The position numbers were made by a program, and so were the translations under genes. From the NCBI RefSeq assembly GCF_963506605.1, contig NC_083280.1, positions 30,070,001-30,134,000 on the forward strand: a stretch of 64,000 nucleotides of DNA. Reading direction: 5' to 3'. The notes below the pieces were generated by a model. It saw only the letters and a program-made list of their open reading frames with translations. It did no database searches and was not told where the DNA came from. This DNA is from Zootoca vivipara. Its lineage: Eukaryota. Below, one piece after another: positions 4,203 to 30,268 of the stretch; positions within the stretch are counted from its first letter, which is position 1; each line of letters begins with the position of its first letter.

Positions 4203-4351
4203 GGACTTCTGTTTCAGTGTATCTGAAGAAGTGTGCATGCACACAAAATCTCATACCAATAACAAACTTAGTTGGTCTCTAAGGTGCCATTGGAAGGAAT
4301 TTTTTTATTTTGTTTCGACTACGGCAGACCAACACGGCTACCTACCTTTAA
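4203..4351 (+). mobile_element. Penelope-like terminal repeat remnant with a degenerate hammerhead (4219-4256)
   Basis: gtat-CTGAAGA-a-gtgtgcatgcacac-AAAA-tctc-atac, ending acggctacctacct; 10-bp direct repeat ccaagcacat (4193-4202 / 4352-4361). Confidence 0.75.
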
Positions 4352-7332: not shown

Positions 7333-7537
7333 TTACAGGTAGGTAGCCGTGTTGGTCTGAGTCGAAGCAAAATAAAAAAATTCCTTCAGTAGCACCTTAA
7401 AGACCAACTAAGTTTTTATTTTGGTATGAGCTTTCGTGTGCATGTGTATCTGAAGAAGTGTGCATGCACACGAAAGCTCATACCAAAATAAAAACTTAGT
7501 TGGTCTTTAAGGTGCTACTGAAGGAATTTTTTTATTT
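7333..7537. mobile_element. Penelope-like inverted terminal-repeat insertion
   Basis: Perfect 77-bp inverted repeat (7368-7444 / 7463-7539); 13-bp direct repeat tgatttgtccaga (7320-7332 / 7538-7550). Confidence 0.8.
7446..7483 (+). ncRNA. Minimal type I hammerhead ribozyme motif, intact core
   Basis: Stem I GUAU/AUAC, core CUGAAGA, extra A, stem II GUGUGC-AU-GCACAC, GAAA, palindromic AGCU helix III remnant, UC cleavage site (after 7479). Confidence 0.75.
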
Positions 7538-25785: not shown

Positions 25786-25880
25786 TATATACTAAAAAAC
25801 AACTGTGTTTTCCATTCCCTCAGTAGCGTTATTCTATCTAAAGCTGCCTAAAGAATAATTATTGTTACTAATCTATAGAT

Positions 25881-26017
25881 CAGGCATCCCCAAACTTCGG
25901 CCCTCCAGATGTTTTGGACTACAATTCCCATCTTCCCTGACCCACTGGTCCTGCTAGCTAGGGATCATGGGAGTTGTAGGCCAAAACATCTGGAGGGCCG
26001 CAGTTTGGGGGTGCCTG
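25881..26017. mobile_element. hAT-type MITE (same family as 791-926)
   Basis: TIR caggca(t/c)ccccaaact; TSD ctatagat (25873-25880 / 26018-26025). Confidence 0.92.
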
Positions 26018-26766
26018 CTATAGATACTTCCTACATGTCCAAAGATTTTGTAAGAAATGTCATTTTATTTTAGAAAACTATAATGTCTGGCCCTTCATCA
26101 ATGTTTACTAATGTAAACTTTTTGCTTTACATAGTTCCATTAGCAGATTTGTGCTCTGTATGCTTGTGATAGTAACTAATGAGTGAGATGGTAGCTCACC
26201 TGAAATGAGTTTCAGCTCTGTTCATTTCTTGCAACAGCAATAAAATGTTATGTATCTCCAATAAACTTTTTAATAGTTTATGTGGTATTCATGCTTGCTT
26301 ATTGTGATCAACCAAATTCTAGTTAAATATAATTACATTTACCAATCCTAGTTTAAAAGCCAATGGTCACTTAGCATAACATAGCATTAGGATTCATTAG
26401 GGTTTTTAATTTGTAATCTGGCATCAGCTTTATTATATTTTGTTGTTGAAGTGGACACTGTGCTGATAATTTTTTTTAATTCATATTTTAAACATTTATA
26501 TCTCTTATATTAAAAGACACTCAATGTGCCATACTGCTGCAGCAAATCACCATAATGATTTTATTTTTTAAAATAATATAGCATCCAAAAGGTGAAGAAC
26601 AAAAATCAAGGTAACATTTAGGACAGGTCTGTTGTGTCTGCTATTCCAGGACAGAAGGGAGAGCCTCACAATGAGATTTCATGTTAAAATATGAGTTGAC
26701 AAAAATTTGAGAACACTTATTCTGTTCATCTGCTGTCTTGTGATGGAAATACCATGTTGATGGTAG

Positions 26767-27060
<294 letters not shown>

Positions 27061-27999
27061 TAGAACTGACAAGAGTAAGACCCAAACCTTCAACATTTCT
27101 CAGGACAGACCAAAAAAATCACCTGCAACAGCTAAAGCAGCTAGGATAGAAGCAAAGGAAACCCCACACAGGAGAGTCCATTTGTAAAGATCACACCTCT
27201 TAGCAGACAGGTGGTCACCATCCTTTTAAAGCAAGTGGGGCAAGTCCCAAGAGATCGCTTGTTGACAAATGGCTACACCAGCCCACTAAAATGCCACCTT
27301 GGTAATTTCAGCACTGATCTTCTTTAAGCCGTCTGAAGTACCTTGGAATCCTGGGGCCCTGCCTACATACTCCTAGGCAGCATCCTCACCCAAGTCACCT
27401 TGGTCTTAGGGAAGATATTCAGGATTTCATTGAAATCGCCCAGTGATCATTGAAATGGACTGCACTCCCAGAACCTTCCCAAAATCATTCTTTCCCAAGC
27501 GTAGATCCAAAATACAGAGAGGTGAAGGGTACTTTGCTATGCCCTAGAAACCATGGCACCAAGACCCAAACTGTTGAATGTTTGAATTCTAGGAAGAGCC
27601 AGGACATGCAGCTGCCATTCACTTCACAGTCCAGTATGTGAAGCTGTTGCCTGTGACTTGGACGCCCAGGAGCAAATACAACCATAATGAAAAAGAGTTG
27701 GTCGGGGTAGTTGCAAGATGGTGCTTGAGGTTATACAGGATGCATGTGAACCCTGGTAACATCCTCTTGCTAGCTGTCCTCTGCACTTGAGAAAGAAATC
27801 TTTACTTAACAATGGATTTTCTTTTCCATTTAAAATACCAGGTTTTTCTAAGCTTAACCTAATATCAAGTAAAATGTTCTAGAAACTTTGAAGCAATGAG
27901 ATTCTTTTTTAACGAGCAAATAGTTTTCAGCCCTATAACCTCACAATGGATGTGATTTCCATACAACATATAGTAGAAATCTGTAACATAAAAATATTC

Positions 28000-28196
28000 A
28001 AGGTAAATAAAAAAATTGTCCAGTAGCACCTTAGAGACCAACTAAGTTTGTTCTGGGTATAAGCTTTTGTGTGCATGCACACTTCTTCAGATACCTGAAA
28101 GCTTATACCCAGAACAAACTTAGTTGGTCTCTAAGGTGCTACTGGACAATTTTTTTATTTCAACTGTGTCGGACCAAAACGGCTACCTACCTGAAA
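28000..28196. mobile_element. Penelope-like inverted terminal-repeat insertion with a minus-strand hammerhead (28057-28094, G12 mutated)
   Basis: Perfect 63-bp inverted repeat (28005-28067 / 28098-28160); 12-bp direct repeat ataaaaatattc (27988-27999 / 28197-28208). Confidence 0.8.
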
Positions 28197-28222
28197 ATAA
28201 AAATATTCTTTATTTTTCTAAG

Positions 28223-28399
28223 GGTTTACTGGATTTGAAGAGTAGGTTTGATCGCTTCCTTCAAGAATCTTTCAATAACGACAGGCTCTTCAAACAAACC
28301 ATTGCGGGTGACTTTGAGTATTTCCTCAACCTTAACTCTAGGTCTCCAGAGTACCTCTCATTATTTATTGATGACAAGTTAAAAAAAGGAGTCAAGGGA
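28223..28399 (+). CDS. CUL3: Cullin-3 exon 8 ([10 protein letters not shown]...KKGVKG), 177 nt
   Basis: Within ORF 28124..28537; tctaag acceptor (AAG type) / gtaagt. Confidence 0.97.
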
Positions 28400-29130
28400 G
28401 TAAGTATATTTTCAGTTACAACTATGCAAATTTGTGTCAAAACAGCAACATATATTTATGCAAACTTCTGTTCTCTTACTGTCCTGAAAGTGTACTGTTT
28501 TAACTTTCAAAATGCAATAAGCAGTGCAGTTGAGTGAACAAATTATATGTGCTTGTCAAAATCTTTTGCAGCTGCATGAACTACATATATGTTTAACAAG
28601 AGAGAGAACTGAATAATTCTTGATTGACTTAACCACTGTTAGTCGTAGTTGTTTTTAGAATGATAATGCTGATAATTAGTGACATTTAAAAATGACCTAG
28701 TATGTTAAAATGAAAATGTTACTGGTGGCAGTGTCAGAAGTACTAATGTATGTGTTCTGGTCTTGCACAGCAATACATCTTCAGTTTACAGTATGATGCC
28801 TTCAAGTTCTTTGTAGCTTAGCATGCTGACCATGTAATCAGATTGCTGCCCCCCCCCCCCCGCCCCAGCAAAATATGTTCCCATTTAGTACTTGAACTTT
28901 TGTCCCCTAACAAGTTACTGTTGCACCAAAAACTTGAAGCCCATGCCTTCGCACATTATTTTCGTGAAGTGTGAAGCCTGAGAAGGCTGTGGCTGCCATG
29001 CTACACGCCAACTGAGCAGAGCAGGATTTATTTCTGAGTAAAAATGCATTGATTGTGCTATCAGTGTTTCTGAATCATAGGATTTTGTGGGCACGATCTC
29101 TAGCGATGGAGATTGGTAGCATTTGGTTGA

Positions 29131-29403
<273 letters not shown>

Positions 29404-30268
29404 TAATTTTAGCTAATGTGGGATCATTGCAGTATGCTATCTAAATACTAAAGGTAGGGCAATAAAAATATTTCATTGCCAGCAAAAGTTGTTTGATAGG
29501 TTTATTCATACTGTTTTTAAAACTTGGAACTGCAGTCGATTTCCTGCCAGAAAGCTTGAAAAGCAGGGAGGAGTTGAAGAGGGTAGAATAAAGCAGGTAA
29601 TGTCAATTTTCCCTGTTCACAGATTTTCTGGAACCCCTGCTGCATGGCAAAAGGCTCCTTCCCATTCTCCATCTAAGCTATAGTCCTCTTCCTTATTTAT
29701 ACAACAAAGTGAATACTTACCTGCTATTCCTTCTTGGAGAAGGATTGAAAAACACCCCACCCTAACCTTCCAATCCATCTTTTCCTCTTCTTTACCCTGC
29801 TAAAAAAAACACTTCATATAATGTGCTTCTTTAGATAGTACAGCTGGAACTAAACTGGGATTTTAAGAATGCACATGGGAATAAATTTCTAATTTTTAAA
29901 TTTGAAATAATTTATATCCTGCTTTTCCTCTTAAGACATACACAAATAGAAAAACAGGGGTTCAAGCCAGTATACAAAGACATGTGACTTTGTATGCTGA
30001 CCTGAACCCCTGTTTTTTTCTATTTGTGTATGTTCCTATACAGTGGGTTCCTTATTTTTGTAAAACAATAGGAGATAGCATGTCATTCAGAATACCTTGG
30101 AAGGCTTTAAAGCCTGATTCAAAAGTTTTAACTTTCCTCCTAAACATAAAGAATAAGGAAGACATATTTTGTTGTATTTTTAAAAAGATTGGGACAGCAG
30201 ATTCTTTTGTTCATTTACAGAACAACTTTTGATCTCCCCAAACTGGTGTAGTAGTGGTGGTGGTGGTG

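Follow-up and report, generated by a model that had tools for sequence, protein, structure and literature searches.

A Penelope-like retroelement next to the acceptor of CUL3 exon 8 in Zootoca vivipara and a probable replacement branch point in its tail

How is exon 8 of the essential gene CUL3 spliced in Zootoca vivipara, where a 197-nt insert and a 12-bp target duplication, ending 14 nt 5' of the exon, lie between its acceptor and a motif resembling a branch point? The insert itself sits 26 nt upstream of the exon. A sequence-only reading of the locus placed the branch-like adenosine A27986 about 28 nt from the exon without the insertion and about 237 nt from it with the insertion, and proposed that splicing is rescued either by a 63-bp stem looping out most of the insert or by a new branch adenosine from the end of the element. 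All of its coordinates were right, and the two distances were computed here as -28 and -237, the empty allele being obtained by removing the insert and one copy of the duplication in silico. The two routes of rescue fared differently.

In the window, that is, the whole stretch of 64,000 nt that was analyzed, 15 exons of CUL3 were found in order by tblastn with a 768-aa CUL3 query, and exon numbers were assigned by counting from amino acid 23 as exon 2. Exon 8 (28223-28399, forward strand) was identified by a translation match to CUL3 and encodes amino acids 344-402. Translation and sequence confirmed that it is frame-preserving (177 nt, phase 0-0) and follows an AAG acceptor; its donor is GGA/GTAAGT. 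The AAG, described at first as less common, indeed precedes no other of the CUL3 exons examined. However, in other vertebrates the bases before exon 8 were AAG (lysine) in 12 and CAG (glutamine) in 19 of 31 genomic read-through ORFs, counted by hand and of a kind in which TAG acceptors cannot appear; one of the 12 is named as albatross. AAG thus works elsewhere, and no weakness peculiar to the Z. vivipara allele follows from it. Exon 9, rather than exon 8, is the CUL3 exon given in two reports as known for skipping in disease (PMC12539212; PMC5832971). In the window, the exon 9 acceptor (29095-29154) has only a weak branch candidate, ggttgAaa at -25, with an A-rich stretch preceding the tract, which echoes the weak human exon 9 acceptor. 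The features around the insertion are collected in Table 1.

Table 1. Features from CUL3 exon 7 to the acceptor of exon 8, in positions of the window.
Feature	Position	Strand	Basis
CUL3 exon 7, donor CAG/GTAGTT	26792-26937	+	tblastn with 768-aa CUL3
Old motif ctgtaAc (A27986), resembling a branch point; moved from -28 (empty allele, computed) to -237	27981-27987	+	consensus only
Target-site duplication ATAAAAATATTC, left copy	27988-27999	+	direct-repeat search
Left junction, complementary to tail end 28188-28195; predicted outer closing helix	27997-28005	+	pair probability 0.1-0.8 by folding window
Penelope-like pLTR copy, inverted and 5'-truncated: left stem arm (28005-28067) and most of the loop	28005-28095	-	89% identity to the pLTR flanking a 925-aa RT and GIY-YIG ORF in L081
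Minimal hammerhead ribozyme motif with core CUGAAGA (28090-28084), stem II and a palindromic loop 3	28057-28094	-	by eye against the descriptor in PMC4209133
Right stem arm: direct 5'-truncated pLTR copy; buries cryptic acceptors 28124 and 28136	28098-28160	+	unpaired probability 0.0
Penelope 'tail', 36 nt, AG-free, one side only	28161-28196	+	same layout described in PMC8557442 and PMC11167929
acctgAa, candidate for the new branch point (A28194, -29)	28189-28195	+	highest-scoring motif of the final 60 nt
Target-site duplication ATAAAAATATTC, right copy	28197-28208	+	direct-repeat search
Polypyrimidine tract (14/17 pyrimidines) and AAG acceptor, unaltered by the insertion	28203-28222	+	

The 63-bp stem described at the outset was found as an inverted repeat (28005-28067/28098-28160) with arms of 63 nt that are 100% complementary. 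The insert fold has z = -16.9, and none of 200 shuffled sequences was equally stable. Twelve AGs are carried by the insert, ten of which are hidden in the stem; use of the cryptic acceptors 28124 and 28136 would lengthen exon 8 by 33 and 29 codons, respectively, in frame and free of stops. Positions 28130-28146 of the right arm resemble the true acceptor and exon start (28217-28233) at 14 of 17 nt, making 28136 a stem-buried decoy. As a perfect duplex in an expressed pre-mRNA, the stem is a likely substrate for A-to-I editing, the products of which are not separable from paralogue reads. Two other inverted repeats lie in CUL3 introns 6 and 9, at 25876-26022 (63 nt, 87%) and 29933-30034 (50 nt, 78%), and are probably other small transposons.

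On sequence comparison, the insert is an ordinary 5'-truncated copy of a Penelope-like retroelement, short and non-coding. It aligns at 89% and 82% to two repeats flanking an intact 925-aa ORF in L081, in which Pfam RVT_1 (E 5.5e-12) is followed by GIY-YIG (E 6.2e-05), both above the cut-off. Longer copies of the family run into the GIY-YIG domain; the copy in the CUL3 intron itself contains no ORF. A C-x4-C-x2-C motif stands before the GIY-YIG domain of the 925-aa ORF, and going by this Cys linker the element is a candidate Neptune-type element, although Nematis is also possible. Many near-identical copies with intact 925-aa ORFs occur genome-wide (for example, L081:1067-3844), often as tandem or inverted pairs, and a related Penelope-like subfamily looks, from such sequences, to have been recently active. 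RNA reads derived from the element are abundant on both strands.

Penelope-like elements are described as leaving a direct copy with an inverted, 5'-truncated copy next to it and a tail of 30-40 nt at one end (PMC8557442); the tail corresponds to the segment that separates two start sites of reverse transcription (PMC11167929). A minimal hammerhead has been described in the repeat of such an element (PMC4209133). The CUL3 copy shares with the EN+ elements of this class the inverted/direct pLTR pair, the one-end tail, the hammerhead, an AT-rich target and a full-length relative with an RT followed by GIY-YIG (PMC8557442; PMC11167929; PMC4209133). It departs from them in that only 197 nt of non-coding sequence remain, that these belong to an older subfamily, at 82-89% to the intact element, and that the ribozyme core is mutated; there is no difference in kind, and its position alone is unusual. 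Because the described anatomy is matched, such a hairpin is what Penelope-like transposition generally leaves behind and is no sign of splicing rescue. Other identities were considered and rejected: the Rfam matches are only sub-threshold microRNA hairpins, and a MITE or DNA transposon is contradicted by the internal inverted repeat, the one-sided tail and the match to a Penelope-like pLTR. An active ribozyme in the CUL3 pre-mRNA was also rejected, since the hammerhead is antisense to CUL3 and its conserved G12 is changed to A at 28068, where most paralogue reads have C, so that it cannot cut this transcript.

The family is present in high copy number: a 25-nt core is matched exactly at 1,396 places, and the motif that continues this core in longer copies at 2,194; a similarity search with the insert scored 40 places among 2,452 first-look candidates. 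Two further copies lie in the window upstream of exon 2, on the minus strand (7333-7537 and 4212-4347), the former with perfect core arms and a target duplication. Thousands of contigs from two related organisms fall on the element, in which the family is thus also abundant, and almost none on the CUL3 flanks; the joints shown for these contigs included none across an empty site. Among other copies, which were chosen by similarity and are therefore biased towards young ones, the layout of a hairpin with a one-sided tail was found in all 19, and target duplications of 10-17 nt with at most one mismatch in 17 of the 19. The 49-nt core arms were free of mismatches in three of 20 other copies, so that the perfection of the CUL3 stem is not exceptional, and selection on it is not supported.

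The reading that best explains the locus, to which we assign a probability of roughly 0.6, is that the tail of the element probably provides a replacement branch point at A28194 and that exon 8 is probably spliced normally. Of the two routes of rescue proposed, this was the better supported: spacing is the same as for the old site, the motif score is similar (3.84 against 3.72 for ctgtaAc, by an approximate matrix based on the human consensus) and no AG intervenes before the acceptor. The motif ctgAa is yUnAy-like, although its +1 base is A and not a pyrimidine, and it falls in the range of 21-34 nt, as do 83% of the human branch points that have been mapped (PMC2367711). An AG-free zone of 87 nt extends from 28136 up to the acceptor, the closest AG upstream of A28194 lying at -89. 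Transposon-borne motifs are able to act as new branch points (PMC7969005), and branch sites at the expected distance prevail over more distant ones (PMC5378181). At the junction, two A residues would have been kept in register (gtAAc to ctgAAa), by which the spacing is barely changed, and U2 would now pair at acctgAa, or at a neighbouring A, instead of at ctgtaAc. The 63-bp stem would be a by-product of insertion with a passive role, hiding most of the AGs, including the two in-frame cryptic acceptors, and the copy would have persisted as near-neutral.

Several predictions count against the tail site. A28194 is predicted to be mostly paired (unpaired probability 0.09-0.32), with the pyrimidine tract or the left junction, whereas A27986 is predicted to be mostly open (0.46-0.97). 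Furthermore, pairing of the new site with the U2 box is weaker, at -0.3 against -2.0 kcal/mol for the old motif by a crude duplex score. However, opening the A28194 site costs 2.3-2.5 kcal/mol, which falls within the 0.7-6.4 kcal/mol of the best candidates at 14 other CUL3 acceptors.

The closest known system is that of MIR insertions in OGDH minigenes, in which the repeat likewise brings a URA motif into the zone of 19-37 nt, where it competes with a more distant site (PMC7969005). The CUL3 case differs from it in being a natural allele, in its Penelope-derived origin and in that a canonical site, not a distant one, would be replaced. Narrow literature searches found no natural case like the CUL3 insertion, with an intronic branch point supplied by a transposon.

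The other route is that the insert folds away and the old branch point continues to serve. As originally put forward, with the 63-bp stem alone, this does not hold up: 81 nt would be left, with an AG exposed 15 nt after the old site, and scanning would choose this AG at 28001 (PMC1431707). It becomes feasible only through a weak outer helix of 8 bp (27997-28005/28188-28195), absent from the earlier account, which together with the stem would bring A27986 to an effective distance of about 38 nt from the exon and would mask the candidate site in the tail along with the first AG, as in the yeast COF1 and UBC13 introns. That AG, at 28001-28002 and the first one downstream of A27986, lies within the left junction itself. 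Closure of the outer helix is somewhat more probable at 20-30°C in three of four folding windows, and it was found in only two of 19 other copies, so that the feature that looping-out needs is an uncommon one; the greater predicted accessibility of A27986 points in the same direction. However, the helix gains just about 2.8 kcal/mol over the alternative fold and depends on the window chosen, and the 5-nt filler at the junction has a ready alternative origin, as we infer, in a copy of the tail made during insertion.

Precedent also weighs on both sides. Structure can bridge distance to a branch point (PMC5378181), and bridged use is established in yeast (PMC3239191). In COF1 and UBC13, as here, a stem between the branch motif and the acceptor cuts the distance and masks AGs, but the CUL3 stem is made by a transposon in a vertebrate gene, a proximal alternative is present and the dependence on structure is only predicted (PMC3239191). 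Human distant branch points, in contrast, are reported with AG-free, unstructured spacers and a pyrimidine tract of their own (PMC1431707; PMC3239191). The CUL3 locus resembles the human exons with AG exclusion zones in having a branch motif more than 100 nt from the acceptor; it is unlike them in that 12 AGs intervene and no pyrimidine tract lies behind the old motif, which is followed by A-rich sequence (PMC1431707). Looping-out onto the old site is considered unlikely. Slightly less likely again is its full form, in which the Penelope copy would fold out entirely, masking all 12 AGs, the cryptic donor and the branch-like tail, while the ancestral branch point acts from 237 nt away at about 38 effective nt. 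This would be a natural vertebrate case of yeast-style bridging, made in one step by a transposon and possibly sensitive to body temperature. If looping-out were true, the vertebrate spliceosome would accept a 200-nt hairpin between a branch point and an acceptor, and for this question the CUL3 allele is a ready-made two-site competition minigene.

It may also be that the insertion is irrelevant, ctgtaAc never having been the main branch point or use being spread over the adenosines of the retained duplication. Most human introns use several branch points (PMC5959240), and the duplication restores the A-rich stretch at -26 to -15. However, on the approximate matrix every A in 28197-28208 scores 1.0 or less, compared with 3.7-3.8 at the old and new sites, and irrelevance appears improbable.

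An allele that is measurably impaired, with partial skipping of exon 8, slower removal of intron 7 or use of the cryptic acceptors (for example, if the stem were edited or unwound), is marginally more improbable still. Partial occlusion of the new site in the predicted folds, the preserved frame of exon 8 and the existence of two open in-frame extensions are in its favour. Against it, the pyrimidine tract and acceptor are intact and the cryptic sites are fully paired, and the fold of the last 40 nt, at -6.6, is close to that of the empty allele (-5.5) and within the range of other acceptors (-1.3 to -10.5). In addition, three of 170 positions in the copy deviate from the base that most close copies share, so that it has persisted for some time. 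RNA reads were examined on 26920-28290, a stretch that excludes exon 9, in about 6% of each of runs X21 and X22. The start of exon 8 was covered by about five reads in X21 and none in X22, and X21 had a depth of 0 in the intron, where X22 had patches with a depth of 0-2. Among the 15 of 50 joints that were shown, all lay within the element and are attributable to other copies, and these included no 7-8, cryptic or lariat joints. A slight surplus of read bases just 5' of exon 8 in X21, where the mean depth over 28208-28253 was 4.5 against 3.4 expected from five exon-starting reads, would fit impairment, as some bases may fall in the last 15 intron bases, but the figure is not interpretable, because the reads are too few and those from conserved exons are filtered out.

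The left junction (28000-28008) is donor-like, AAG/GTAAAT being almost the same as the genuine donor of exon 9, AAG/GTAAAG, and with its preceding AG it looks like a recursive site with a poor pyrimidine tract. Recursive removal, in which the old site would splice to AG 28001-28002, regenerate the donor GTAAAT (15 nt after A27986) and then splice to exon 8, is very improbable, because only seven of 17 upstream bases are pyrimidines, the site is predicted to be largely paired and the second step would still require the new branch point at the end of the tail. A pseudo-exon ending at 28002 was rejected, as all four upstream acceptors with at least 11 pyrimidines give stops or frameshifts and no reads lie there.

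The insertion is thus a real copy of a well described class of retroelement in an uncommon position. With roughly 200,000 acceptors, about 0.4% of the genome lies within 30 nt of one, so that with thousands of copies some such landings are expected, and those that survive near acceptors should be those that leave splicing intact. That transposons can supply branch points is already known to specialists. If the tail does provide the branch point of intron 7, the CUL3 allele would be a tidy natural case in which a transposon has brought about the turnover of a branch point in a gene that is highly conserved, and would show how an insertion inside an acceptor region can be tolerated.
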